A stretch of 64,000 nucleotides of DNA from an uncultured Candidatus Saccharibacteria bacterium (GCA_964409615.1 CAYPDT010000001.1:243880-307879); one strand, 5' to 3'. Positions 2 to 15,620 are shown, counted from the first letter of the stretch. Notes: generated by a model from the sequence alone, not told the origin. Numbers and translations are program-made.

Positions 2-1531
2 CTAACCCGTAACTCTTCGGTGCTTGGAACTTCCGAGCTAGCTGCGCTGTACCACTTTCCTTACGGGGAGCATATGCAGTCAGAAGATATGGTTAAGTCA
101 GTGGCAAAAACACTGCCAGCCCCATTGTCTATGAAGAATCACGCTAATGCTGCCGACTACGATATTGTTCTAGGAACTAATAATCACCATGGTAGCCGCA
201 CCGCTATTGGCTTAACGGCCAAGGAACGAGAAAAGCATGTCTATCTCATTGGTGGTACTGGCAACGGCAAGACCACCATGCTGGAGTACGCGTTACTCCA
301 AGACATCAAGGCCGGTAAGGGCGTGGCTTTTATTGACCCCCATGGTGATGCTGCCCAAAAGCTTCTTAAGTACATCCCCGAGGAGCGCATTAAGGATGTG
401 GTCTACTTAAACCCTCGAGATATTAAGCACCCGATTGGCCTCAATCTCCTGGAGCTACCTGAGGGACTCGACGAAGATGAACTGCTGGTCGAACAGGAGC
501 GTGTGACTGAAGCGGTTGTGTCAGTACTACGGAAAGTCTTTGCCGATGATGATGCTAATGCCCACCGCATCGAAGGCATGCTCCGCAATACCATTAGGAC
601 GGCGTTTAGCACTGAAAACCCGACATTATTTACCTGTTTAGAGCTACTGCGTAACGGTGAGTTTCGCAATAAAGTGGTGGCAAAACTCACAGACGCACAC
701 CTAAAAGACTTCTGGCGAGAAGAGTTTGGTAAAGCTGGCGGCATGCAACGGGTAAGTATGACAAAAGGACTAACTCACCGCTTAGATCGTTTTGATGGTT
801 CGCAGTTCGTAAACCGTATGATGAGTCAAACGAAATCTACCATTAGCTTCGAGGATATTATTGACACTGGGAAGATCCTTATCTGTAACTTTAGTACTGA
901 CATGGGTGAAGATACCGCAACGTTGTTTGGTACAACTGTATTGGCTAAACTCAAGATTGCCGCCGAACGACGCCACAACCAGCCCGAAGCTCAGCGTAAG
1001 CCCTTTTACGTTTACGTAGATGAGTTCCAGAACTTTGCGACTACGCCGTTTGTGAAGATGCTGTCTGCTTCACGCAAATACAAGCTATTCTTAACCATTG
1101 CCGAACAATCTGCCGCTCAACAGGAAGAACAACGCTTAACGGAAGCGATCCTGGCCAACGTCAGTACAATTGTGTGCTTTGGATTGGGCAGCCCATTCGA
1201 TGAGCGGTTGTTGCTTGGCCGGTATGAACCTTGGCTTGAGAAAGGCAATTTACTCAACCAACCGGCTTACAACTTTTATCTACGAGTAAAGGCCGAGGAG
1301 CCAATGGAGCCGGTTTCCGGGGAGACTATAGTACTAGATAGTGCGGAAGGCAGTGAACGACGTGCTGAAGAGGTCATATCAGCCTCCAGAGAGAACTATG
1401 CGGTTGAATGGAAAAGTTATATGCCCAGCAGGGCAAAGGACGCCTCCAAACAACCCGACGTCAAAGTAGCTAACAGTAGGGAGGGTGCTGAGAAGAGTGT
1501 AGATTTTCAAGCTAGAGCGCTGGATGCTTAA
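2..1531 (+). CDS. Type IV secretion coupling-protein-like ATPase (TraG/TraD/VirD4 family), 5' end cut by window edge
   Basis: The reading frame is open from nt 2. Walker A is GGTGNGKTT and a Walker-B-like segment is FYVYVDEFQNF. Size and layout match conjugative coupling ATPases. Confidence 0.6.
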   Translation, partial: LTRNSSVLGTSELAALYHFPYGEHMQSEDMVKSVAKTLPAPLSMKNHANAADYDIVLGTNNHHGSRTAIGLTAKEREKHVYLIGGTGNGKTTMLEYALLQDIKAGKGVAFIDPHGDAAQKLLKYIPEERIKDVVYLNPRDIKHPIGLNLLELPEGLDEDELLVEQERVTEAVVSVLRKVFADDDANAHRIEGMLRNTIRTAFSTENPTLFTCLELLRNGEFRNKVVAKLTDAHLKDFWREEFGKAGGMQRVSMTKGLTHRLDRFDGSQFVNRMMSQTKSTISFEDIIDTGKILICNFSTDMGEDTATLFGTTVLAKLKIAAERRHNQPEAQRKPFYVYVDEFQNFATTPFVKMLSASRKYKLFLTIAEQSAAQQEEQRLTEAILANVSTIVCFGLGSPFDERLLLGRYEPWLEKGNLLNQPAYNFYLRVKAEEPMEPVSGETIVLDSAEGSERRAEEVISASRENYAVEWKSYMPSRAKDASKQPDVKVANSREGAEKSVDFQARALDA

Positions 1532-1600
1532 CAGTTTAATAGAGAATTGATAGCAACTAGATTATTCGGAAGTTACTAGTAACAGCTCGACCAAATTGTG

Positions 1601-3076
1601 CTAGTTCCGTTTAGCGGCGATAGAGTAGCCGATGGCAGACAAACCAAGTAGTGTGGCGATAACCACGCCAAGTAGAGATACTGAATTGATGCCGGTGTTT
1701 GGTGCGGCAGCATTAGTGCCAGCATTTGCATTGGTGGTTGTAGCTGAGCAGACAGCACCTTCGAATTGGTAGGCACCAACAGATGGACAAGAATTACGGG
1801 CTACACCACGAGCATCGGTAGATATGCCTAAGACCTGACCACCGGCGTTAATTGCCGGACTACCTGCCAATAAGGCCATGGTTGGTACAACACCACCATT
1901 GTCCTGCAGCGGGCCGAGAGTGCTGAAAAGATTGGCAAGATTTTGTTGGTCGCCGGGTTGGGTAAAGGTGGTACACGTACTATCGTCGGATAAATTATGG
2001 CCGTCGGAAATAATCCCGGTAGTAACCGTGCCTGTCAGGCCACCAAATGCCGCATTACCATTTAATTCAGCACAGTTGGACGATACATTATCGCTGATAT
2101 TATTGGTGAGCAGGCTATTTTCGACGTTCATAGTAACGGACGAGGTGTGCGGTGTCGCCGCTGCTCCACCGGTGAAGAAGGCCACTGAATTTTCACCAAT
2201 CGAACCAGTACTTCCGTCAAGTCCGACAACTGTTACGTTTTTTACAATCACACTGATGGTGGTATCACCGCTCAACGCCGCACCAATGCTTCCAAATCCT
2301 AGCGCTGCTGCAGAAGCAGTTATGTTATTAATAGTTGTATTGTAGACATTTGCATTTACCGTGCCGGTTCCGGCTATTAGGACAAAGAAGGCTCCGGCAT
2401 CGCCAGCAGAGTTATGTATATTTGCTACCGTAGTATTCTGTATATTGGCCGTAGGTGTAGAGGTATTAAAGGCATATACCCCACTAGTTGCCGCGGCGTC
2501 TAGATCATGAATATAGACGTTATTAGCTGTCGTGGTAACATTGGCCGCTGCGGAGTTGCCCAGTTCCACACCCTTTAATTGGTTCCCCGTTGGCAGGGCG
2601 TTAGTGCCATCTATTTCAATGTTTGATAGTGTCACACTGCCATTGGTGCTGATAATTCCTTGCCCAAGATAGCTGGCTATTTTCAAGTCCTGGACAGTAA
2701 CGACAGCCGTAGAACTGTTGATGCGAATTGTGCGATATTGCCCAGCATTTCCATCAATTGTCGTCTGGCTCATCCCAGCTCCCTGGATCTTGACCGACAC
2801 CGATATTGTCGGTGAATCTGCTGTTAACGTCTGCGTGCCTGCAGGTATGGTAATGGTGTCATTGGTTCCATAGCCGTCTGGTGAGACTGTAGCTGTGCAG
2901 CCGGATTGATTAGAACCGGCATTAACCGAGTCAATCGCGATTGGCAGGGTACAGCCACCGGTGACGTTAAGGGTTGCCGCATGCGCCCGACCGGAACCAG
3001 AAGCAAGCACCGCCAGGAAGGCGAATGTTGCGAGGATTAGTTTGTTTGTTTTTGTTAGATTCAGAATACTGATCAT
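1601..3076 (-). CDS. Sortase-anchored surface protein, beta-helix-like repeats, APNTG sorting signal (paralog 1)
   Basis: Signal peptide (..GSGRAHA/ATLNV) followed by a G/N/T-rich repeat core. The C-terminal module is GHNLSDDSTC..DARGVAR..GAYQFEG (choice-of-anchor-Q-like). It ends with APNTG, a hydrophobic helix and a KRN tail. Confidence 0.75.
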   Translation of the reverse strand: MISILNLTKTNKLILATFAFLAVLASGSGRAHAATLNVTGGCTLPIAIDSVNAGSNQSGCTATVSPDGYGTNDTITIPAGTQTLTADSPTISVSVKIQGAGMSQTTIDGNAGQYRTIRINSSTAVVTVQDLKIASYLGQGIISTNGSVTLSNIEIDGTNALPTGNQLKGVELGNSAAANVTTTANNVYIHDLDAAATSGVYAFNTSTPTANIQNTTVANIHNSAGDAGAFFVLIAGTGTVNANVYNTTINNITASAAALGFGSIGAALSGDTTISVIVKNVTVVGLDGSTGSIGENSVAFFTGGAAATPHTSSVTMNVENSLLTNNISDNVSSNCAELNGNAAFGGLTGTVTTGIISDGHNLSDDSTCTTFTQPGDQQNLANLFSTLGPLQDNGGVVPTMALLAGSPAINAGGQVLGISTDARGVARNSCPSVGAYQFEGAVCSATTTNANAGTNAAAPNTGINSVSLLGVVIATLLGLSAIGYSIAAKRN

Positions 3077-3114
3077 GGAGTAATTCCTTTATACATCGTT
3101 TTAGCTTTACCGGT

Positions 3115-3143
3115 ATTCTACCCCCCCCTGAGATACAAAGCAA
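3115..3143 (-). promoter_or_regulatory. Putative sigma70-type promoter TTGCTT-N17-TAGAAT with a G8 tract in the spacer
   Basis: Read on the minus strand, -35 is at 3138-3143 and -10 at 3115-3120. The spacer is 9 nt plus G8 (3121-3128 on the plus strand as C8). Confidence 0.45.
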
Positions 3144-3294
3144 GAAACTAGCTCTAAAGATCATCACTGAGTATCTCCGAGACATCTACGTGGCGTTGGC
3201 AGTCTTCGATACTCCGTCAAGCCAAGGTGATGGCGAGGATTCGCTCAAAGTCAGTCTGTGCTGCAGCCAAGTCTTCATCATAAGTTACCAATAA

Positions 3295-3981
3295 TCACGA
3301 CTGTGCTTCGGCGACAACTATCACTCGAGAATCGTAAGTTTTGCTGGCCTTGTCGAATCTACCAGTACAGGTTATCAAGTTAAGTTGCTTTGCAATGGTA
3401 TTGTGACGGACAAACAGCGCCGTATCGGCTTCTTTAGTAGTAACCCTCTGCACTTTCCTGATTTTGAACCTACGGACACTTTTATCACCGAAAGTTACGG
3501 TAAAGGCATCACCGGCTTTTAGCCTACCAAGGCTATAGAATATCCCTTTGGCGTACAGCCCATGTACATGCCCGTCAATAATACTGAGGCCAGCATCACC
3601 AGGCAAGGAGCCCTTGGTGTACCAGCCAGCCATATTAACATTACTAGGGACTACCATCTGGTTATCTTTGTCTACGCCTACTTGCTGAATAAAGCCTTCT
3701 GTTTTGATAGTTGGCAGCTGAATGGATAGTGGCTTATCTGCTGGGACACTGTAATTATCTGGTACTGGCTGTTCGCTGGGAGTGTCGGTGGATTCTGTTG
3801 CTACGGTGTGTCCAGTCGGTACACCGGCATGTTGAATGAAGTACCAGTTTCGTATTGCATTCAGGCCAACGCCAACAAGTAATATGCCTACTATGAATAA
3901 CGCAAAGCGAATATTTCGTTGATTCTTAGAGACTGCTCCACGCTTTGATAATCTATTGCTACGCTTCTTGTGCCGAACCAT
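3295..3981 (-). CDS. Sortase (class E/F-like transpeptidase)
   Basis: N-terminal basic segment plus one TM helix. Conserved His (IIDGHVHG), catalytic Cys motif LITCTG, and conserved Arg (SRVIVVA). Confidence 0.8.
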   Translation of the reverse strand: MVRHKKRSNRLSKRGAVSKNQRNIRFALFIVGILLVGVGLNAIRNWYFIQHAGVPTGHTVATESTDTPSEQPVPDNYSVPADKPLSIQLPTIKTEGFIQQVGVDKDNQMVVPSNVNMAGWYTKGSLPGDAGLSIIDGHVHGLYAKGIFYSLGRLKAGDAFTVTFGDKSVRRFKIRKVQRVTTKEADTALFVRHNTIAKQLNLITCTGRFDKASKTYDSRVIVVAEAQS

Positions 3982-3996
3982 AGGTACTAATATAGA

Positions 3997-5475
3997 CTAG
4001 CTCGAGCGTTGTTGCTTGCGGAATACGTATGTTAGTAGTCCAATGCCAAGCATGCTGGCAAGTACATTGAGTATTTGTGCTATAGATCCAACACCCGTGT
4101 TTGGAGCTCCTGCGTTACTACCGCCAGATGCAGATGGAGTAGAAGCACCGCAGACAGCACCTTCGAATTGGTAGGCACCTACAGATGAGCATTCATCTGG
4201 GCGTGCTACGCCACGGGCGTCAGTGGTGACACCTAGAACTTGTCCACCAGCAGCGATAGCTGGAGAACCTGGCAAAAGAGCTCGTGTTGGAACTGCTCCG
4301 CCGTTATTCTGGAGTGGACCGAGAGTGGATAGTATGTTGCTGACATTTTGCTGATCACCTGATTGGTTGAAGGATGAGCAGCTGTCATCGTCTGAAATGT
4401 TATGGCCGAACGATAGAAGTGATAGATTCACTGTGCCCGGGCTACTGAACGTCGTGAGTGTACAGTTGGCAGCTGAGCCCATATGCGTATTACCCGCTAA
4501 TAGCGCATTGCCAACTGACAACGTTACACTTGCAGTTCTCGCATTCCCCGCCATACCACCAACGAATAAGGCGCTACTAGTCTGGCCATACTGCCCTAGC
4601 GCGGCCCCCGCGACATTAGTTACTGTTATATTTTGGAGTACGGTACTGAATACTGAATCACTACTATTTGCTCCACCTACATTTGCGAATCCAATCGCTG
4701 TATGCGCAGCCTCTAGGTTATCGATCGTAGTATTTACAATGCGAGAATTGACGGTACCGACTCCCATTACAAGAAATCCAAATACATCTCCACCACTGTT
4801 CGTGAGATTTGAGATAGTGGTATTCGATATGTCTATGGTACTTGATAAGCCATCTTGCAATTGAGTCTGAATACCGTGGACTATCCCTGATGTTGATGCT
4901 AAGTCATGAATGTATAGGTTATTGGTAGTTATACTATTGTCAACACCTTGGCTGTTCCCTAGCCACAATCCCCAGAGGGGTCCGCTATCAGGCTGAGCTT
5001 CGCCACCATCCACCTCAATATTTTCGAGCGTGAGAGCCCCTCCGTCATTCCATATACCTGCCCCAAAAAACTCTACAATGGTCATACCCTTTAATCTGAT
5101 ATTATCATTCGGGCTTTCAATATTAAAAGGTGCGTACAGTCCACTATCACCACTGATTACGGTCTGTCCCATACCTGCCCCCTGGATAGTCACCGATTCG
5201 GTTATGGCAGGCAAATCTGCTGTCAACGTAATCGTCCCCGCAGGAATAGTAATTGTATCGTTCGTGCCGTACCCACTAGGAGATACCGCGGCCGTACAAC
5301 CAGATTGGTTGGCACCTGCATTCACCGAATTAATAGCAATAGGAAGCGTACATCCGCCCGTGACGTTAAGGGTCGCTGCATGCGCCCGACCCGAACCAAA
5401 GGCAAGCACTGCCAAGAAGACGAAAGCTGCCAGGACTAGTTTGTTTGTTTTTGTCAGGTTCAGAATATTGAGCAT
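3997..5475 (-). CDS. Sortase-anchored surface protein, beta-helix-like repeats, APNTG sorting signal (paralog 2)
   Basis: The N-terminal ~90 aa and C-terminal ~130 aa are near-identical to the 1601..3076 product, while the core is divergent. It ends with APNTG, a hydrophobic helix and an RKQQRSS tail. Confidence 0.75.
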   Translation of the reverse strand: MLNILNLTKTNKLVLAAFVFLAVLAFGSGRAHAATLNVTGGCTLPIAINSVNAGANQSGCTAAVSPSGYGTNDTITIPAGTITLTADLPAITESVTIQGAGMGQTVISGDSGLYAPFNIESPNDNIRLKGMTIVEFFGAGIWNDGGALTLENIEVDGGEAQPDSGPLWGLWLGNSQGVDNSITTNNLYIHDLASTSGIVHGIQTQLQDGLSSTIDISNTTISNLTNSGGDVFGFLVMGVGTVNSRIVNTTIDNLEAAHTAIGFANVGGANSSDSVFSTVLQNITVTNVAGAALGQYGQTSSALFVGGMAGNARTASVTLSVGNALLAGNTHMGSAANCTLTTFSSPGTVNLSLLSFGHNISDDDSCSSFNQSGDQQNVSNILSTLGPLQNNGGAVPTRALLPGSPAIAAGGQVLGVTTDARGVARPDECSSVGAYQFEGAVCGASTPSASGGSNAGAPNTGVGSIAQILNVLASMLGIGLLTYVFRKQQRSS

Positions 5476-5512
5476 TGAAGTAGTTCCTTATATTATTTAT
5501 AGCGTTACCGGT

Positions 5513-5542
5513 ATTGTACCCCCCCCCGAATATAGTGCGCAA
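5513..5542 (-). promoter_or_regulatory. Putative promoter TTGCGC-N18-TACAAT with a G9 tract in the spacer
   Basis: Read on the minus strand, -35 is at 5537-5542 and -10 at 5513-5518. The spacer is 9 nt plus G9 (5519-5527 on the plus strand as C9). Confidence 0.4.
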
Positions 5543-5634
5543 ATTTTTGTATAAAATCATGTCTCTTTCCCCTAGAAACAGACCAACCATTATTTGCTTT
5601 GCAAACACTGGTTACAAGATAAGGACTTCACATG

Positions 5635-6414
5635 CTAACGTTCTATAGTTAGAAACTCAAATTTTATAGTTACCCAGTTATTGTCTAGCTCTCGTTTAGT
5701 CAAGTTCTGTAATCTTCGCTCCAGTATTTTTGTTTCACAAGCTATAAGTACAACTGGAAAGTCGCGTTCGGTGACTTTCTGCCACTTTTCTGACTCCGCA
5801 TAGGTAATGTAGCGTCTGATGCTGTTCTTGATCCTCCAGTAGGGCGCACTGGCCTCATAGAAGCTCAGGAAATAGTCTGGGGCAATTAGTTGGAGCTTGT
5901 TCGTGCCTCCATTGTCAGTAATCTCTTCGTTCTTTTGTAGGTAGGCATCCGTAAGGTCTCTTGGGAGCTTGTACTTCAAGCTAGGCAGTTCAGTCTTGCT
6001 GAAGAACTGAAATTGCTTGGGGTAATTTTGTTTAATAAATACGTACGCCTTAAAGACGTTCAGTCTGTGTTGGATATGACCATCGTCTTTGTTCTTGTCG
6101 TAGTAGATTTGTTTGAGTGCGTTTGGATCTGCAAATGGTTGCTGTCTGAGTACCTGTATTCCTTTGGGAAGTAAGTGATAAGTAGCTGGTTTACCGATGA
6201 TCTTATAGCTTTTGTCATAGTTCTGACCAATATAGCCTTGATCTACTAATATCTTTAGTCTTGTTAGTATTACTCTGGTATGTTTAGCTCCCTGACTTGA
6301 GGCAATGATTTGAGCTGTTATATAGCGAAATTTATATAGTGTAGTGAGTAGTTGAAGTTGATGTGAGTTTATGGGTCGATGTTTAGTGTTGGTGGGTTGT
6401 GGTGTTGTGTTCAT
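5635..6414 (-). CDS. Hypothetical protein, possibly replication-relaxation family (winged-helix N-terminus)
   Basis: The N-terminal segment LQLLTTLYKFRYITAQIIASS..RLKILVDQGYI resembles a winged-helix DNA-binding domain. It lies between surface-protein genes and a recombinase. The family call is tentative. Confidence 0.35.
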   Translation of the reverse strand: MNTTPQPTNTKHRPINSHQLQLLTTLYKFRYITAQIIASSQGAKHTRVILTRLKILVDQGYIGQNYDKSYKIIGKPATYHLLPKGIQVLRQQPFADPNALKQIYYDKNKDDGHIQHRLNVFKAYVFIKQNYPKQFQFFSKTELPSLKYKLPRDLTDAYLQKNEEITDNGGTNKLQLIAPDYFLSFYEASAPYWRIKNSIRRYITYAESEKWQKVTERDFPVVLIACETKILERRLQNLTKRELDNNWVTIKFEFLTIER

Positions 6415-6601
6415 AGTAAGTTTTTATACGCCTATCTATGTTAATAGATATATAAGTAAAGATGCAAGCCATTAACTCCTTGAGATTTAACTCTTATATA
6501 TCCTATCGGCAGGATATCCACAGTTGTATTTAATACCTTGATAATATACTTGTAGGTATACTTATTAGTGGTATATACTAAGCTTATAAGTGGGGGTAGT
6601 C

Positions 6602-6769
6602 ATGATACAGACAGAACCAATACAACCCAGTCCAGAGGACACTTCCGAAGCGCCGTTATCAGATAACGAGCGCATCGATCTCATCGCTAACTTACTTTTA
6701 GATTACTTAGACGAAGAGCAGTCGGGAGAAAAGGGGTCATGCAAGACGACGCAAACAAAAATGCTGTAG
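6602..6769 (+). CDS. Small acidic ORF (55 aa) overlapping the recombinase start; doubtful
   Basis: ATG at 6602 preceded by GTGGGGG; product MIQTEPIQPSPEDTSEAPLSDNERIDLIANLLLDYLDEEQSGEKG.. It overlaps the recombinase start by 31 nt, is below the ORF-track size cut-off, and shows no recognisable motif. Confidence 0.2.
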   Translation: MIQTEPIQPSPEDTSEAPLSDNERIDLIANLLLDYLDEEQSGEKGSCKTTQTKML

Positions 6770-8454
6770 CTGCTATTCGTGTCTCGACCACCAAGCAGGG
6801 TACTGAGGGTGACTCACCTGAAGCTCAGAAAGAACAAATAGAGCGTTTTGCTTTAACCCGTGGCATCACCATAAAAAAGTTTTTCGTGTTTTTGGAATCC
6901 GCTAGTAAAGAACAACAACCGATGCAGGAAGCCATTGATTACTGCAAGAATCCCAAGAACGGGATCGAGCTGTTTATCATAAAATCGATCGATCGTTTTA
7001 CTCGCGGCGGATCGCTTTCGTACGACCTACTCAAAAACCAGCTGGAAGCAAATAGCGTGTCATTGGTAGACATTTACGGCGTGATTAGTTCTCGGCAGGT
7101 GAATACCCTAGAACACCTCGGTTTTGAATATAAGTGGAGTAAATACTCACCAAGTAAGAAGTCCGAGATATTAGAGGCTGAACGCTCCAAGGATGAGCTA
7201 AGAGACATTATGAGCCGTATGATTGGGGCTGAGATTCGCTATACCCAACTAGGTTTCTGGATGCGACAACCGCCGTTCGGTTTTGTCAGTGAAAAAGTCG
7301 AAACAAATAACGGCAAACGCTGCATCTTACGACCACACCCGACTGAAGCCCAATACATTACTAAGATTTTCGATCTTCGAGCCCGTGGCACTATGCGCGA
7401 TATGGAGATTGTTGAGGAAGTTAATAAACTTGGTTATCGAGGACGAGTGCAATATGTCCGAGATAAGAGTGATCGGTCTAAAGTTTTAAAGAAACGTGGA
7501 GGCGACCCCTTAACCCTCAAAGCCTTGGATCGTATTGTCTCTAATCCAATCTATGCTGGGATTAATGCCGAGAAATGGACTGACGGGAAACCAGTGCAGT
7601 GCGCTTTTGACGGGCTCGTATCTATCGACCAGTTTAACCGCGCGAACAAAGGTAAGAAGATCATCACCAAAGATGATCAAGGCGACATTTTCATCATCAA
7701 CAGAGCGCCAGAGCCACGCTACGCAGTCATCAAAGGCACTCGCAATCCTGATTTTCCATACCGCAAGTTTGTTCTGTGCCCAGAGTGCCATAGACCGCTA
7801 ATTGGCAGCGCATCGCGGGGTAAGTCCGGTAAACATTATCCAGCTTATCACTGTGATAAACGCGGCCATTATTTTCGTGTACCTAAAAAGGAACTGGAGG
7901 ATAGAGTGAATGAATTTATAAACGGTATTCGTGTCTCGCCGGAGCAGGTCGATAAAGTTTTGGCTGTTATTGAAGCCGAGTGGAAGAAGCGGGAACAGGC
8001 GCTCAAACAAGAGGTTGAGACGCTTGATAGCCACATACTGGGCTTACGTACCGAAATTGACATGACTGGAAGCAAGATTAAGCTCGTGAGCAACGAGACA
8101 GCAATTAAATACATAGAGGAGGACATTGTGCGTATAGAACAACAAATTAAAGAGCTGGAGGCTACGAAGATGAAGAAGATAAACCGTAAACCCATTAATT
8201 GGCAGGGTCTGAAAGCTAGGGTTCGCTACCTGGCGGAACACTTTGATGAGCTACTACTACAACAGATTGATCCGGTCAAAAAAGCTCAATTTTTTGCTGC
8301 ATTATTCAATAAATTTCCAACATTTGAAGATCTAGCCAGCGGAACACCCGGCAAGCCAAACTTTACAGGGGTGAATCCAATATTTTCTCTTGCTAAATTA
8401 CCTACTACCCATTTGGTGACCTCACGGGGAATCGAACCCCGATTGCCGGGATGA
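6739..8454 (+). CDS. Large serine recombinase
   Basis: N-terminal resolvase domain with the catalytic Ser context AAIRVSTTKQ. A recombinase domain follows, then a Cys/His zinc-ribbon (CPECHRPL..YHCDKRGH) and a C-terminal coiled coil. The last ~14 codons are antisense to tRNA-Glu. Confidence 0.9.
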   Translation: MQDDANKNAVAAIRVSTTKQGTEGDSPEAQKEQIERFALTRGITIKKFFVFLESASKEQQPMQEAIDYCKNPKNGIELFIIKSIDRFTRGGSLSYDLLKNQLEANSVSLVDIYGVISSRQVNTLEHLGFEYKWSKYSPSKKSEILEAERSKDELRDIMSRMIGAEIRYTQLGFWMRQPPFGFVSEKVETNNGKRCILRPHPTEAQYITKIFDLRARGTMRDMEIVEEVNKLGYRGRVQYVRDKSDRSKVLKKRGGDPLTLKALDRIVSNPIYAGINAEKWTDGKPVQCAFDGLVSIDQFNRANKGKKIITKDDQGDIFIINRAPEPRYAVIKGTRNPDFPYRKFVLCPECHRPLIGSASRGKSGKHYPAYHCDKRGHYFRVPKKELEDRVNEFINGIRVSPEQVDKVLAVIEAEWKKREQALKQEVETLDSHILGLRTEIDMTGSKIKLVSNETAIKYIEEDIVRIEQQIKELEATKMKKINRKPINWQGLKARVRYLAEHFDELLLQQIDPVKKAQFFAALFNKFPTFEDLASGTPGKPNFTGVNPIFSLAKLPTTHLVTSRGIEPRLPG

Positions 8455-8488
8455 AAACCCGATTTCCTAACCGTTAGAAGATGAGGCC
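8414..8488 (-). tRNA. tRNA-Glu (anticodon TTC), CCA encoded
   Basis: Manual cloverleaf: acceptor GGCCTCA/TGAGGTC, D arm TTCT/GGAA, anticodon stem TCGGG/CCCGG with loop TTTTCAT, T arm CGGGG-TTCGATT-CCCCG, then ACCA. Confidence 0.85.
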
Positions 8489-8591
8489 TTCTTATGTCAT
8501 GACCAGTCTTTGTACCCTGGCTTAGATGACAAATAAAGGAACCTGAAGATTATAACATAACAGAGACAGAATTGAAATAGACTACCAATTT

Positions 8592-9563
8592 TTAGCGCGT
8601 ACTGCGCAGTTTATAAGCGCGACGTGCATAGTGCAAAACCCCAAATACATATCCTACCGAAACCAACGCCCAGTAGACAACCGAAAACCGAGCTTGAAAC
8701 AATTCAACACTAAAAAACACAGCGGCAGCAAGGTAAGTCACGCTAAACCATGCGAACTGTTTTAGGTAATGACTTGTCTTAGTGGCATTACTCACACTAT
8801 ATAGTCGCTGAAGCTCAGTTATTTGTTCGGAGTTAAAAGCTGGCGCTGGGTGCGTTTTATCGAGTACTTCTCGCATCAAGATATGGGCAGCATTTATCAG
8901 AGTTTTGGTTGAGGCACTATATTCCAATTGTGCAGCACCACTTCTGAAATAAAGAAAAATACTGTTCCCGCTAAATTCAACGTCGATCATGGTTGGAAAA
9001 TCTATTAAGCTACGCATAACATCTGGGGTTAAGATGGTAAGTACTGCTTGCTCAGTACCTCGTGAGCACAAAACATCAAAGTAGCTATGAAAATCACCCT
9101 CTAACAAGTACTGGCTTGGAATAGCCACCATGTCGTCAAGCGTGTCTTCGATGAGAGTGTCATTTGCCTTCCGGTTCAGAACTATCCTTGGGAATTCTCG
9201 CGTTGTAATTAGCCGCAATACGCGTGTCCTATTTGCAACACCATTTGTTTCGCTAATTACTAACATATCTGCTCGCAAGGTCGTACCAGGCAGAAAGCCT
9301 TTGATAGCCTCACTGACTCCACGACTTGTGCCCATGGCAATGTTTTTAAGAGCCGCAGGTGGCCGATGATGATAATAACCCAGCTCCCAACCAGCCTGAG
9401 TTGCCCATTGAACGTATGGTTGATTATTGGAATTCGCCGTGTCAGCTGCCGGATTGGCCACTTTCGTCATAGCAGGTGATGAAGGAGTGATATTTGCGGA
9501 AGGGTTAGAATTGTTTGCAGGATTTTTTTGTGGTTCCATTACAGACAATATACCACTCGTCAT
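8592..9563 (-). CDS. Hypothetical membrane protein
   Basis: Long ORF with a low-complexity N-terminus and C-terminal hydrophobic helices (FAWFSVTYLAAAVFF.., VVYWALVSVGYVFGVL). Confidence 0.5.
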   Translation of the reverse strand: MTSGILSVMEPQKNPANNSNPSANITPSSPAMTKVANPAADTANSNNQPYVQWATQAGWELGYYHHRPPAALKNIAMGTSRGVSEAIKGFLPGTTLRADMLVISETNGVANRTRVLRLITTREFPRIVLNRKANDTLIEDTLDDMVAIPSQYLLEGDFHSYFDVLCSRGTEQAVLTILTPDVMRSLIDFPTMIDVEFSGNSIFLYFRSGAAQLEYSASTKTLINAAHILMREVLDKTHPAPAFNSEQITELQRLYSVSNATKTSHYLKQFAWFSVTYLAAAVFFSVELFQARFSVVYWALVSVGYVFGVLHYARRAYKLRSTR

Positions 9564-9701: not shown

Positions 9702-11522
9702 ATGGCTCTACCTAGAACACAAACAAAACCCAAATCAATACAAAAACAAAAGTCCTTCAAAGACTTTTTTAACACTGGTAAAAAGAAAGCTATCGCCCTT
9801 GGTGGTGTTTTGGTCATCGCAGCAATAGGTGCGTACCTAATGTTCTTTGTTGGTGCCGCACCAAACAACTGTTCTGCAGTTGATGGTGGTGGCATATGTG
9901 ATGTCAACCAAGCTTCAAGCCCTGATGGAGCTGATGCCGTAGCATCTACAACCGACGAAGTACAAAATCTGAGCCGTAATGCTGGCTGGACCGACTGGGG
10001 AGTGCCCTTCCGAGCACCTAACTTCCCGCAAAATGGTGCATTACCTGTATGGCGCTTTTATCGTAACGACATTACCGCTCACTTCCTAGTTATCGAAGGT
10101 AGCGCCGAATATAACACGATGGTAGCTGACCCAGCGAATGCTCGAGAAGGCATTGCCTTTTACGCATGGCCAGATGGTCGTCAGCCCGGCACCACACCAA
10201 TTCACCGTATTAATCGCAAGCCATTATGGTTCTTGCAGATGTACACCGACAACCAGAATGTTGTTAACCAATTCGTTGCTAACCCAGATGGTTCTTGGCA
10301 AGATGGTGGTGTAAACTTCTGGGCTTACCCATCAACCTACTTCCCTCCAGTTCCTGCCTCAACACCAACCAAAGATACTGACTGTGCTAACCAGAATCTA
10401 ACTCCTGGCGATAAGGGTGCCTGCGTACAATGGCACAAGGGTGTGCTCAATGGCTACGTTGTATACAACGGTAATCAAGCACCACAGCTCGATGTCAACA
10501 ATAATGACTTCGATTCAACCACCAACGACTACACTCGTCTGTTTGTAAAATCACTACAGTCTAAGGGTGTCAAAGCACCAGACTATAGCAATGTTCTAAC
10601 CAAAGAAATTTGGGAGGCATTTGCTGCCGGATATCCTGCAGCTCCAGTCACCCGACCTAACCCAACAACTCCTGGTGTGCCTAACGTTCCAAGTACTCCT
10701 CAGCCAAAAGACCCAGGTAAGACCGATACACTTCCTTCTGGACCAACTCAGCCAGTAGGTACCGACAACAAACCTCCACAGCCAAGTCAACCAATCGCCG
10801 GGCCAGATAGCGGTGTTGGATGTACTACTGCAAACGCTGGCGAGGCACTAACCCATAAAGGACGCAATGCTGCTGGGGAACAATATAGCAAAGCATGTAT
10901 AACAACACTCCAGGTTTGGGCAGGTCTACGTGGTGCGGATGCAGACGGCATCTGGGGACCAAAGACAGAATTCGCTATTACTGCAAAATTAAAGCAGAAC
11001 CAACCGCGGAATCCAGGGGCAATTCCAAACCGTAACCCTGATAATCGAAGTACGCAAAGTAACGATAGCAAAAACCCACAACCTTCAACTCCTGCACCAC
11101 GCCCAGACCCAGACACTCGAAGCCCACAAAATGCACCAACCGGGCGACTCGGTAACGGCACAAAACAACATTTAAACATATACGTTGACGCCAGCGATAA
11201 AGTTGTTTCCAACAGCGGATCATGGACACGACACTACATCTGCGATGTCTACGTTAACGACAAAGTATGGAAATATGCTCGAGATGACAGCGGTAAAGAT
11301 TTAACTAGCTCATTCCTCAAAGTCAAACAAGGCACCGGACGATTCGCCGCAACCAAGACGAATCCAGGCAACGATCGTACTTCGTGTACTTACACTAGTC
11401 GATTCAAGAACGCCAGAACCAATGCATGGATAATGTCAACTACTGACCGCGGTGTTGGCACCGACGGTGAAGGTGATGGCCTCGTCAACCGAGTAACTAA
11501 GAAGACTCGCGTTAACGACTAG
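9702..11522 (+). CDS. Secreted/anchored protein with peptidoglycan-binding-like segments and Pro-rich linkers
   Basis: N-terminal TM or signal anchor. Two PG-binding-like stretches (GDKGACVQWHKGVLNGY; ITTLQVWAGLRGADADGIWGPKTEFAI) and long P/T/Q-rich linkers. Confidence 0.55.
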   Translation: MALPRTQTKPKSIQKQKSFKDFFNTGKKKAIALGGVLVIAAIGAYLMFFVGAAPNNCSAVDGGGICDVNQASSPDGADAVASTTDEVQNLSRNAGWTDWGVPFRAPNFPQNGALPVWRFYRNDITAHFLVIEGSAEYNTMVADPANAREGIAFYAWPDGRQPGTTPIHRINRKPLWFLQMYTDNQNVVNQFVANPDGSWQDGGVNFWAYPSTYFPPVPASTPTKDTDCANQNLTPGDKGACVQWHKGVLNGYVVYNGNQAPQLDVNNNDFDSTTNDYTRLFVKSLQSKGVKAPDYSNVLTKEIWEAFAAGYPAAPVTRPNPTTPGVPNVPSTPQPKDPGKTDTLPSGPTQPVGTDNKPPQPSQPIAGPDSGVGCTTANAGEALTHKGRNAAGEQYSKACITTLQVWAGLRGADADGIWGPKTEFAITAKLKQNQPRNPGAIPNRNPDNRSTQSNDSKNPQPSTPAPRPDPDTRSPQNAPTGRLGNGTKQHLNIYVDASDKVVSNSGSWTRHYICDVYVNDKVWKYARDDSGKDLTSSFLKVKQGTGRFAATKTNPGNDRTSCTYTSRFKNARTNAWIMSTTDRGVGTDGEGDGLVNRVTKKTRVND

Positions 11523-13367: not shown

Positions 13368-15620
13368 TTATACTTCTTTGCGAGCAGCGTATAGCTTGTG
13401 CAAGATTGCACCGACCATACTTGTTGCAGCGAAGATGCCGAAGATGTTGCCTGCACCAGTGTTTGGAAGCACTGTTGGAGGAGTTACAGTTGGAGGAGTA
13501 GTGGTAGTCTTGATTGTTACAGGAGCTGCACACTTGTCGCTCTCAACGGTTTTGTTCTCGCCATTGACATCGAAGGTTACTACTGCGCGAGTCACAAACG
13601 TACCATCTTTGGTGTAGGTGTGCTCAGCAGTTTGCTTGTTTGTCATGAACTTGTCGCTACCATCGCCGTAGTCGAAGGTTGCAAACTTGTAGTTAGCGCC
13701 ATTGTTGGCAGTAACTTTGATAGTGTAGCGATATTGCTTTTCACCAATCTTTTCAGCGGTCAGTAGGTCACAGCTATATACAGGAGTTACAGGCTTTGGA
13801 GCAATCTCGATTTGAGTTGCACATGCAGCTGATGTAGCAGTCTTGTCTACGCCGTTTACCGTAAAGGTAACAGTAGCAGTAACATTGTATGTACCATCTT
13901 TGGTGTAGGTGTGCTCAGCAGTTGGGCTGCCAGTAGTTACACCAGTACCATCGCCGTAGTTGTAAGCAACATTCTTGAAAGTTGCGCCGTTACGAGCAGT
14001 ATAGGTTGTAGTGAAACGGTACTTGTTCTCGCCAATCTTGTTAGTTGTAAGCAAGTCACAGCTATAGATAGGGGTAGGAACATTTACTGTTGCGTCATCA
14101 CAATCGTCTTCATCATTCGGGTTGTTAGGGTTAACTTCTGGAGCGTTGACACATGCTGTGTTAACGATATCACCAGCGACTTCTGCAGTTACCTTAGCGC
14201 GGATGTTGATGTTTACAGAAGCACCAACTGCAAGCGCAGGAATGGTATAGGTAAGCTTGTTACCTTCGATAGAACCTTTATCGGTGCTGATGAACTGTAC
14301 GTTTGCAGGAGCGTTGTCGCTAACCTTCACGTTTGTCAGTGCAACATCACCAGTGTTCTTAACAACCAACTGGTAGGTAAATTCTTGGTTTACACCAACA
14401 GTCTTCTTCTCGACGCCATCAACTTTTTTGTCGATGCTTACACCAGGATTCTTAGGTGTTGGGTTACAGTTGTCTTTCTTAATCTTAACATCTGCATAGT
14501 CTTGGATTTCTGGGTACTGTCGTGATGCAACGAATGCTAAGTTACGGACGGTAACTTCACACTCTGCAAAGTCATCTTTAGCAATTGTATCGAAGCGGAT
14601 GTTGAAACCTGAGTTTGGCTGTAGTACGCCGACACCAATACCACCGGTAGTGAATAGCGGGCCATCTTGCTGAACTACATCTTGTGGAGCAGAGTCAATG
14701 TAACGGACAGAACCCGAAACAAGCTGCATGTGTGGAGGAAGCTGATCGCTTACTGCAACGTCATCAAGCTTAGCAGTACCAAGGTTGTTTACGCGCAGAC
14801 CCCATTGGATTTTGTCACCAGGCTTTACTTCAGTTGACTTGCCGTAAGCAGCGTTAACGCCTGCCTTACGGACCATCTTCTCAAGCTTTAGTTCAGGTGT
14901 CTTAATGCGGACACGAATTTCTACGCTTGCCTGGTAGTCGAAACAGCCAGGGAAATCACCATTAATGTTGTCGTAGCCAACTTGTACCCCGTTACCGACG
15001 ATTCCATCACTTAGCTTATAGCCACCAGCTGATGCTGGGTGTGCAGCCGTGTAAAGGATAGCTGAACCAGGTACGTATTCTACAGAGAATGGAGTACCGT
15101 CAATAAGTTCGGTTGTGTCAGTTACTTCGCCAGCGTAGCCTGGAGCTGGGTTGTCCCAGTTGATGTAGCTACGTGCACGTAGTTCGGTAGCAGTACCAGT
15201 AGGAAGATCGATCCGAATACGAGTATTCTTAGCGATGCCAAGGCCACTTGCATTAGTGTCTTGGTTAGCATTGTTGTGAATGTACGAGCGAAGAATAACT
15301 TCTTTAGTACCCTGGGTTGGGTAACTTGTTACATCTTTGAACGCGTTAACGCCGTCGGCTTGGTCAGTTCGTGCTGAGTCAAAGAACGCACGTTCGTCGC
15401 CATAATATGGAGTGTTAACAAATGAGTTAAACACTGGGCCATTCAAAGAACCTTTGCGTTGATCAGGATTGTTCCAGTCAAAGGTTGGTCGGTTTGCTGG
15501 GCTAAAGCCGGCAAACGTAAGTGCGCTCGTTAGTACGATGCCTGTGGCAACGAGGCCAGCAAGGACTTTAGTCTTCACACTTGTTGGGCGAAGCTTTTTG
15601 ATGATATTTCGTAATTTCAT
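13368..15620 (-). CDS. Sortase-anchored surface protein with DUF11-like and PKD-like repeats, LPNTG signal
   Basis: Signal peptide, a DUF11-like region (VKNTGDVALTNVKVSD) and two PKD-like repeats (..YGDG..EHTYTKDGT..). It ends with LPNTG, a hydrophobic helix and an ARKEV tail. Confidence 0.8.
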   Translation of the reverse strand: MKLRNIIKKLRPTSVKTKVLAGLVATGIVLTSALTFAGFSPANRPTFDWNNPDQRKGSLNGPVFNSFVNTPYYGDERAFFDSARTDQADGVNAFKDVTSYPTQGTKEVILRSYIHNNANQDTNASGLGIAKNTRIRIDLPTGTATELRARSYINWDNPAPGYAGEVTDTTELIDGTPFSVEYVPGSAILYTAAHPASAGGYKLSDGIVGNGVQVGYDNINGDFPGCFDYQASVEIRVRIKTPELKLEKMVRKAGVNAAYGKSTEVKPGDKIQWGLRVNNLGTAKLDDVAVSDQLPPHMQLVSGSVRYIDSAPQDVVQQDGPLFTTGGIGVGVLQPNSGFNIRFDTIAKDDFAECEVTVRNLAFVASRQYPEIQDYADVKIKKDNCNPTPKNPGVSIDKKVDGVEKKTVGVNQEFTYQLVVKNTGDVALTNVKVSDNAPANVQFISTDKGSIEGNKLTYTIPALAVGASVNINIRAKVTAEVAGDIVNTACVNAPEVNPNNPNDEDDCDDATVNVPTPIYSCDLLTTNKIGENKYRFTTTYTARNGATFKNVAYNYGDGTGVTTGSPTAEHTYTKDGTYNVTATVTFTVNGVDKTATSAACATQIEIAPKPVTPVYSCDLLTAEKIGEKQYRYTIKVTANNGANYKFATFDYGDGSDKFMTNKQTAEHTYTKDGTFVTRAVVTFDVNGENKTVESDKCAAPVTIKTTTTPPTVTPPTVLPNTGAGNIFGIFAATSMVGAILHKLYAARKEV
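13497..14072 (-). repeat. Two tandem 288-nt (96-aa) PKD-like coding repeats
   Basis: Both units begin P[I/V]YSCDLLT.. and contain YGDG..TAEHTYTKDGT. Boundaries were counted from the C-terminus of the ORF translation. Confidence 0.7.

Follow-up and report, generated by a model that had tools for sequence, protein, structure and literature searches.

How do two neighbouring genes come to encode surface proteins with closely similar ends and a strongly divergent core, and by what means are such proteins varied? This question is raised by a stretch of 64,000 nucleotides (64 kb, referred to here as the window) from an uncultured Candidatus Saccharibacteria bacterium (GCA_964409615.1, CAYPDT010000001.1:243880-307879), in which two paralogs, gene A (1601-3076) and gene B (3997-5475), lie on either side of a sortase gene. 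The original prediction, made from the window itself, saw in this arrangement the pattern expected of cassette-like antigenic or adhesin variation by recombination between the conserved flanks. In the analysis presented here, A and B look like members of a mobile-element-borne family of sortase-anchored beta-helix surface proteins, independently switchable and swappable, and not like copies that rewrite each other. The genes and the shared block on which the argument turns are the following (aa, amino acids; ORF, open reading frame).

1601-3076, minus strand: gene A, encoding a secreted parallel beta-helix protein of 491 aa that has a sortase signal at its C-terminus (ORF call, AlphaFold2, NF041518)
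3295-3981, minus strand: sortase of 228 aa, between A and B (PF04203, E 7e-18)
3997-5475, minus strand: gene B, a 492-aa paralog of A (ORF call, BLASTP, NF041518)
1748-1785, minus strand: 38-nt block in A, 97% identical to 4150-4187 in B, encoding S-VGAYQFEGAVC

Conserved ends and divergent core

The two proteins, compared by BLASTP, are 54% identical overall (E 2e-171), with an amino-acid identity of 84% in residues 1-100, 41% in residues 101-355, 71% in residues 356-445 and 37% in the tail. The earlier description of two paralogs of 491 and 492 aa around a sortase, alike at their ends and divergent in the core, is thus borne out, as the ORF coordinates and lengths were right, the gene between them matches PF04203, and the quoted motifs GHN[LI]SDD, DARGVAR, GAYQFEGAVC and APNTG are found in A and B alike. 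The central part had also been called a repeat region; it is divergent, but it is not a sequence repeat, and in the AlphaFold2 model it corresponds to the coils of a parallel beta-helix. A duplication of the 5' untranslated region (UTR) and promoter was likewise claimed, and this stands for the ~57-60 nt between a G tract and the ATG, which are about 80% identical in A and B, but not farther upstream, where TTGC alone is common to the two.

One mechanism that may produce such a profile is gene conversion over the conserved coding flanks, in which A and B, or unseen silent copies, would swap their cores within one genome in the manner of pilE/pilS or vlsE. The conserved ends and variable core at the protein level speak in its favour, as do the 97% identity of the 38-nt block and the low proportion of synonymous differences (pS) of 0.32 in codons 1-30, obtained in a Nei-Gojobori codon scan of A against B in 30-codon windows. 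Against it, all the other 30-codon windows give a pS of 0.65-0.89, including the protein-conserved codons 31-110 and 361-450, and residues 34-110 and 351-440 have a pS of 0.77-0.80, which is saturated and equal to that of the core; the first 30 codons and the 38-nt block are the exceptions to synonymous saturation across the two genes. Because the synonymous sites of the flanks are as saturated as those of the core, the codon scan shows that purifying selection, and not gene conversion, maintains the conserved ends of the proteins, and intragenomic conversion between A and B was rejected on this ground. The same profile of conserved ends and variable core recurs over 86 aligned family members, and it reflects structural and functional constraint on the helix cap and the choice-of-anchor Q domain. 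In view of these two results, the N-terminal module of ~90 aa and the C-terminal module of ~130 aa do not hold up as the recombination flanks that they had been taken for.

Further evidence points in the same direction. Exact nucleotide runs of at least 14 nt shared by A and B number only four (14-30 nt), the longest of which, with 30 nt, is inside the 38-nt block. The search for silent copies that had been called for, performed with tblastn and blastn of A and B over the window, returns A and B only, with no silent or partial copies, and the related copies elsewhere are all full length, each with its own promoter and start codon. The core, moreover, is conserved inside a lineage, with a ratio of nonsynonymous to synonymous change (dN/dS) of 0.03. 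Silent cassettes of the pilE/pilS, vlsE or msp2 type were also rejected, as none is present in the window and the DNA identity of the flanks is low. Taken together, the gene-conversion model is largely refuted for this window, and it is very unlikely to account for the pair.

Instead of recombination, continuous diversifying (positive) selection could be behind the variable core, or targeted hypermutation such as that caused by a diversity-generating retroelement. The core is the most variable part of the family, and diversity-generating retroelements are frequent in genomes of the candidate phyla radiation. The within-lineage comparisons are, however, difficult to reconcile with this explanation, given that A and its 95%-identical relative have a pS of 0.385 with a dN/dS of 0.06 overall and 0.03 in the core, and that the core dN/dS is 0.03-0.12 in three such comparisons. 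The divergence also includes indels and saturated synonymous sites, no template-like DNA repeat of the core occurs elsewhere in the window, and no reverse transcriptase was found among the ORFs scanned in or beside the element (20-9563). This explanation was rejected, and its probability is slight in the extreme. Since a within-lineage pS of 0.385 goes together with a dN/dS of 0.03-0.06, each allele type is old and under strong purifying selection, with a core that is not hypermutating, and the comparisons show a family that is ancient and diverse, in which every allele lineage is strongly conserved.

Exchange of cassettes between related elements

The recombinational exchange of the original prediction is retained in one respect, since other alleles really are found in the same slot of related elements; the exchange is, however, of the population or mobile-element level and involves different flanks, namely the extreme ends of the genes. 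Seven contigs, picked by exact protein identity and originating from different samples, have gene A with 100% nucleotide identity, and their flanks diverge by 5-20% in stretches of 200 nt. On the left, the identical block breaks off exactly at the G run (3128) in L001, at 3237 in L003 and at ~3600 in L002, L005 and L006 (labels in L denote related contigs or loci, labels in P family proteins).

In the slot of gene B, as compared in five related elements, the backbone is 80-100% nucleotide-identical to the window and the gene body 40-45%, the shared parts being the Replic_Relax gene, the promoter and initial 100-300 nt of B, its last ~50 codons and the sortase. In these pairs, the tail has a pS of 0.00-0.07, as against 0.66-0.84 elsewhere in the gene. 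Maximum chi-square breakpoints, which rest on the comparisons with L001, L026 and L093, lie at 5374/4405 against the first of these and at 5215/4401 against the other two. Exact matches of at least 17 nt among 105 paralog pairs are located almost only in codons 1-20 and ~420-490, the 38-nt block among them, and this block (1748-1785 and 4150-4187) is a candidate 3' crossover anchor. The arrays also differ in the number of their members, as the window has B, the sortase and A; in L090, B with its sortase is followed by two further members, of 586 and 499 aa, in that order, between which a second sortase and then a 77-aa gene are placed; and L093 has four members.

Given the near-identical backbones and tails around divergent bodies, and the identical gene A in diverged backbones, these comparisons demonstrate, at the sequence level, an exchange of mature-protein cassettes and of whole gene-sortase units between related elements. 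On the slower of two time scales, the mature-protein segment and the gene-sortase units are thus swapped among related elements, with breakpoints in the promoter, 5' UTR and signal-peptide region on one side and in the sorting-signal and sortase region on the other, and this swapping also alters the number of units in the array.

Two observations on the neighbourhood of these genes may be added. Between the units of L090:2326-5050 and L093:8277-13500, additional members (586, 561, 498 and 490 aa) are inserted, together with second sortases of 186-232 aa, a gene of 77 aa and a DUF3800 protein. The closest non-identical relatives of A (P0002 and P0003) adjoin IS1595-family transposases (L098:180-1046, L099:2870-3814, L100:269-1213).

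Poly-G promoters as putative switches

Upstream of each of the two genes, a G run is found within an inferred promoter, as follows.

3115-3143, minus strand: inferred promoter of A, with TTGCTT (3143-3138), a 17-nt spacer ending in G8 (3128-3121) and TAGAAT (3120-3115)
5513-5542, minus strand: inferred promoter of B, with TTGCGC (5542-5537), an 18-nt spacer ending in G9 (5527-5519) and TACAAT (5518-5513)

In both, TTGCxx is placed 9 nt upstream of the G run and the run abuts the -10 box, and in A there are 38 nt with an AGGAA ribosome-binding site between TAGAAT and the ATG. According to a homopolymer census, these G8 and G9 tracts are the sole G/C runs of at least 7 nt in the window. In a set of Saccharibacteria loci amounting to 414 kb, some of which overlap, G runs of at least 7 nt stand directly 5' of TAnAnT in 53 of 53 cases, as compared with none of the 18 G6 runs and one of the 181 G5 runs. 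Twenty-one distinct promoters were obtained, all with TTGC 8-9 nt upstream of the run and with spacers of 16-19 nt, the remaining bases of which differ. In 20 cases, the gene downstream is a family member with the MxSILNLTKTNKL signal peptide; in the remaining one, it encodes a different surface protein of 873 aa. In this last case (L008:10552), TTGC, G9 and TAGAAT stand before an unrelated protein that has a signal peptide of its own and a hydrophobic stretch and basic tail at the C-terminus, so that the poly-G promoter does not appear to be strictly confined to the beta-helix family. A scan of metagenomes with the promoter motif returned only three loci, and none was found in a scan of viral contigs.

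The length of the run varies by 1-2 nt among promoters that are identical in all other respects. The A-type promoter has G8 in six contigs and G9 in L003, with identical flanks; the B-type promoter has G9 in nine and G10 in L001 and L089; the TTGCTCAAAATATC-type promoter has G9 in seven and G8 in two; and the TTGCAAATAACTTAC-type promoter has G7 and G9. Relatives without an intact run, which would be 'locked', have either a TTGACA/TGnTACAAT promoter or an interrupted GGAAGGGGG run, and the promoters of P0002 and P0003, which lack an intact G run, have the interrupted GGAAGGGGG or TTGACA/TGTTACAAT. The sole G run of at least 7 nt seen outside a promoter is a coding G7 run in the distant member P0089 (L101-L105:2233), which is the same in five independent assemblies. 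The contigs L091 and L092 begin within the G run of the B promoter, and L090:1-20 is an odd GC-rich sequence just upstream of the run; assemblies seem to break at the G run, for which length heterogeneity or poor poly-G coverage could be the cause.

In the proposed mechanism, each gene has its own promoter, with a run of G7-G10 filling the 3' part of the spacer between the -35 and -10 boxes. Strand slippage at this run would shift the spacer length within 16-19 nt, and with these shifts the expression of each surface protein would rise or fall independently of the other, in a manner similar to phase variation at contingency loci. The state found in the window is a spacer of 17 nt (optimal) for A and of 18 nt for B. 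Strand slippage in the poly-G promoter spacer, i.e., phase variation, is on balance the probable fast switch of A and B. As a fast switch, the poly-G tract, which the original prediction did not include, is more likely than cassette recombination.

The same data may be read in another way, with A and B as ordinary diverged paralogs and the G run as a fixed promoter element, such as a protein-binding site or a determinant of spacer rigidity, the differences in length being assembly errors or slow neutral drift. Several assemblies of one study do agree in length (G9 in L093-L097), the run lengths are known from assemblies and not from reads, and a generic promoter scan does not call the poly-G sites. 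A fixed element would be less expected, however, where runs of 7-10 G are excluded from the rest of the 414 kb and yet recur at one position in at least 21 promoters, where their lengths vary in both directions among near-identical sequences, and where the coding G7 run is constant over its five assemblies. The relatives without a run, in turn, have gained a canonical TTGACA or an extended -10 box, as expected of a switch becoming locked. This alternative is rather improbable, although it keeps some weight.

Several points nevertheless weigh against phase variation and cassette exchange as proposed here. The -35 box is weak, and since TTGCxx matches TTGACA in just 3 of 6 positions, a generic sigma-70 scan missed both promoters, so that their assignment rests on conservation across the family; the boxes were judged by the generic sigma-70 consensus, and promoter rules for Saccharibacteria are not established. 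The differences in run length all come from assembled contigs, in which homopolymer errors are possible, and one sample of the Joint Genome Institute (JGI), with a sequencing platform that is not known, has one additional G in two promoters. More distant family members have no G run. As for the exchange, the selection of the contigs with A by exact protein identity inflates the identity, although such a choice of contigs does not account for the lack of any synonymous difference. Finally, the proteins may be adhesins or enzymes, the best folds in the PDB being polysaccharide epimerases or lyases and Rhombotarget A, all at low TM scores.

Protein family, fold and presumed cell-wall anchoring

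The C-terminal features of the two proteins are located as follows.

1763-1921, minus strand: choice-of-anchor Q domain of A, residues 386-438 (NF041518)
4165-4326, minus strand: choice-of-anchor Q domain of B, residues 384-437 (NF041518)
1691-1705, minus strand: APNTG sorting motif of A; the hydrophobic helix and KRN tail behind it extend to 1604
4093-4107, minus strand: APNTG sorting motif of B

Both proteins match the NCBIfam model NF041518 of the choice-of-anchor Q domain far above its cutoff of 25 bits (64.4 bits for A, 63.0 bits for B), and a Pfam search of A and B gave no match. An exact look-up of protein B returned no record, and a cluster representative of 99.8% identity (P0004) was used in its place. 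The AlphaFold2 model of A, built from an alignment of 76 sequences, has a predicted local distance difference test (pLDDT) of 87 and a predicted template modelling score (pTM) of 0.80, and presents an N-terminal signal helix, a right-handed parallel beta-helix at residues ~35-410 and a C-terminal membrane helix at residues 468-490. Foldseek searches of the PDB with this model return generic beta-helix proteins only (AlgE4 epimerase, Rhombotarget A and PL6 lyases), with template modelling (TM) scores of 0.2-0.44, and the transfer of an enzymatic function from these matches was rejected because of the low scores.

A K-rich n-region, a hydrophobic helix (residues 9-27) and an AHA|A site can be read from the sequence of the N-terminus and are conserved in the family. 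At the other end, APNTG is found at residues ~457-462, after the end of the choice-of-anchor Q domain (437/438), with a hydrophobic helix and then a basic tail (KRN or RKQQRSS) behind it; the motif is APNTG and not LPXTG, and its T461 and G462 are invariant or nearly so across the family. The sequence of APNTG, hydrophobic stretch and basic tail, with a sortase in the neighbouring gene, thus reads as a cell-wall sorting signal. The sortase between A and B presumably attaches both proteins to the cell wall, and it is probably co-transcribed with B, as 16 nt separate its start from the stop codon of B. Against the class F sortase model it scores 115 bits, which is under the cutoff of 166. In related loci, the family genes are mostly paired with a sortase.

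In the general plan of the family, a cleavable signal peptide is followed by a conserved cap at the N-terminus and a variable body of the helix, and then by the choice-of-anchor Q domain and the signal made up of APNTG, hydrophobic stretch and basic residues. More than 160 homologs were found, and those with names are all Candidatus Saccharibacteria, with at least six paralogs in one metagenome-assembled genome. The choice-of-anchor Q domain by itself occurs in many phyla; for residues 1-350, a search of 1.84 billion proteins gives matches in only 201 clusters (50% identity), and these N-terminal 350 residues define a narrow, Saccharibacteria-restricted subfamily of ~200 such clusters. Within the variable core, a YIHD motif at residues 188-191 of A (window ~2504-2515) and at the equivalent place in B is nearly invariant (Y188, H190), and it could be a functional or catalytic site. 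As to function, A and B would be variable surface proteins that bind ligands or act on glycans, and through which the cell attaches to its bacterial host or to a mating partner of the element.

The mobile element and its surroundings

The genes that surround the array are the following.

20-1531, plus strand: type IV coupling protein, VirD4/TraD-like, C-terminal 503 aa, convergent with A and cut by the window start
5635-6414, minus strand: Replication-relaxation (Replic_Relax, PF13814) protein, a backbone gene upstream of B
6739-8454, plus strand: large serine recombinase, the 3' end of which overlaps tRNA-Glu
8414-8488, minus strand: tRNA-Glu(UUC), probable integration site and right boundary

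In L002 and L003, the coupling protein is found at its full length (881-889 aa) and has DUF8128, and the Replic_Relax gene is kept in L001, L089 and L093-L097. The order of the element is serine recombinase, Replic_Relax, a number n of surface protein-sortase units and type IV coupling protein, and the same backbone of recombinase, 55-aa gene, Replic_Relax and surface-protein/sortase units recurs in other Saccharibacteria contigs. The final 40 nt of the serine recombinase ORF lie within the tRNA-Glu gene, which is read from the other strand, and the homology between the window and L093, at 88% nucleotide identity, ends exactly at 8488, the outer end of the tRNA. Both facts suggest the tRNA-Glu as the attachment site and right boundary of the element. 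Given this homology end, the gene order and the recurring backbone, the segment from the window start to the tRNA is best taken as the right-hand end of a mobile element of the conjugation type that is integrated in the chromosome and whose left boundary falls outside the window.

The remainder of the window is ordinary chromosome, including a Mur ligase and a histidine kinase. Just beyond the element there are a 606-aa DUF5648 protein (9702-11522) and a 750-aa DUF11/PKD-domain protein (13368-15620), which are probably further surface proteins.

Comparison with known systems

Mycoplasma hyorhinis, a host-dependent bacterium with a small genome, has a multigene family of surface proteins, the vlp genes, which lie in a cluster whose size differs between strains. 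Like the genes described here, each has its own promoter with a homopolymer run, and a conserved 5' end and signal peptide precede a divergent exposed body. According to PMC10502178, which refers to Citti and Wise (1995), a homopolymeric A tract in every vlp promoter provides ON/OFF switching. The differences are that the run is poly-A there and poly-G here, that the vlp products are tandem-repeat lipoproteins and not sortase-anchored beta-helices, and that the present array is on an integrative mobile element beside conjugation-type genes, its switching being predicted from sequence.

A similar logic applies to porA and opc of Neisseria meningitidis and fim of Bordetella pertussis, in which poly-G or poly-C runs are located in or near the promoter spacer, and changes of 1 nt shift the spacer about its 17-nt optimum, resulting in graded or ON/OFF expression of the surface protein. 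The likeness consists in a G/C homopolymer between the -35 and -10 boxes; unlike those genes, the present ones belong to another phylum, and their run abuts the -10 hexamer and is common to a whole paralog family on a mobile element. Promoter runs of the porA/opc/fim type are touched on in two surveys (PMC5084427, PMC1891110).

With the other NF041518 proteins, which occur in many phyla, A and B share a domain placed directly before a C-terminal sorting signal; what sets them apart is the narrow, Saccharibacteria-restricted N-terminal region of 350 residues and the APNTG sortase anchor.

In the flagellin gene fliC and other surface-antigen loci, central regions are replaced allelically between conserved ends. 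These loci resemble the present one in having old, divergent allele classes that are exchanged by homologous recombination in conserved flanks within a similar backbone, and they differ in that the unit here would be the whole mature protein, the flanks the promoter and signal peptide on one side and the sorting signal and sortase on the other, and the backbone a mobile element.

Another point of comparison is PrgB of pCF10, a cell-wall-anchored adhesin of a Gram-positive conjugative element. There is no sequence or fold relationship between PrgB and A or B; the likeness is that sortase-type surface proteins stand beside coupling-protein and relaxase-like genes on a transferable element, and that A and B may serve in contact between donor and recipient or between epibiont and host. 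PrgB-type adhesins are discussed in PMC12102498, where no PrgB-like adhesins were detected in type IV secretion system (T4SS) loci of Patescibacteria and relaxases were rare, which makes the pairing of surface proteins with Replic_Relax and a coupling protein noteworthy. No canonical MOB relaxase was seen beside the surface-protein array, which is flanked by the coupling protein and Replic_Relax, and this combination may bear on the scarcity of relaxases reported there.

Both proposed mechanisms are thus of known kinds, and no report of them in this phylum was found in the literature; the publications searched on phase variation, homopolymeric tracts and sortases in Saccharibacteria and on integrative and conjugative elements in Patescibacteria gave no description of the protein family or of the poly-G promoters.

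Implications for Saccharibacteria

The means by which Saccharibacteria and other ultrasmall epibionts recognize and attach to their hosts are largely unknown, and type IV pili and a T4SS have so far been implicated in epibiont-host attachment (PMC11623550, PMC12857230). The locus described here provides concrete candidates, in the form of sortase-anchored surface proteins beside a coupling protein and Replic_Relax on a mobile element, and the G7-G10 promoter run is a simple sequence feature that predicts stochastic switching.

In its full extent, the interpretation of the locus must be kept tentative, and it may well fail in one or another of its parts: a tRNA-integrated, conjugation-type Saccharibacteria element would carry an expandable array of adhesins, each of them phase-variable through its poly-G promoter, with cassettes shuffled between elements at the signal-peptide and sorting-signal anchors, the whole acting as a transferable 'switchboard' for attachment to a host or mating partner. 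If this is true, the switchboard would set which bacterial host or mating partner an epibiont of the candidate phyla radiation attaches to.

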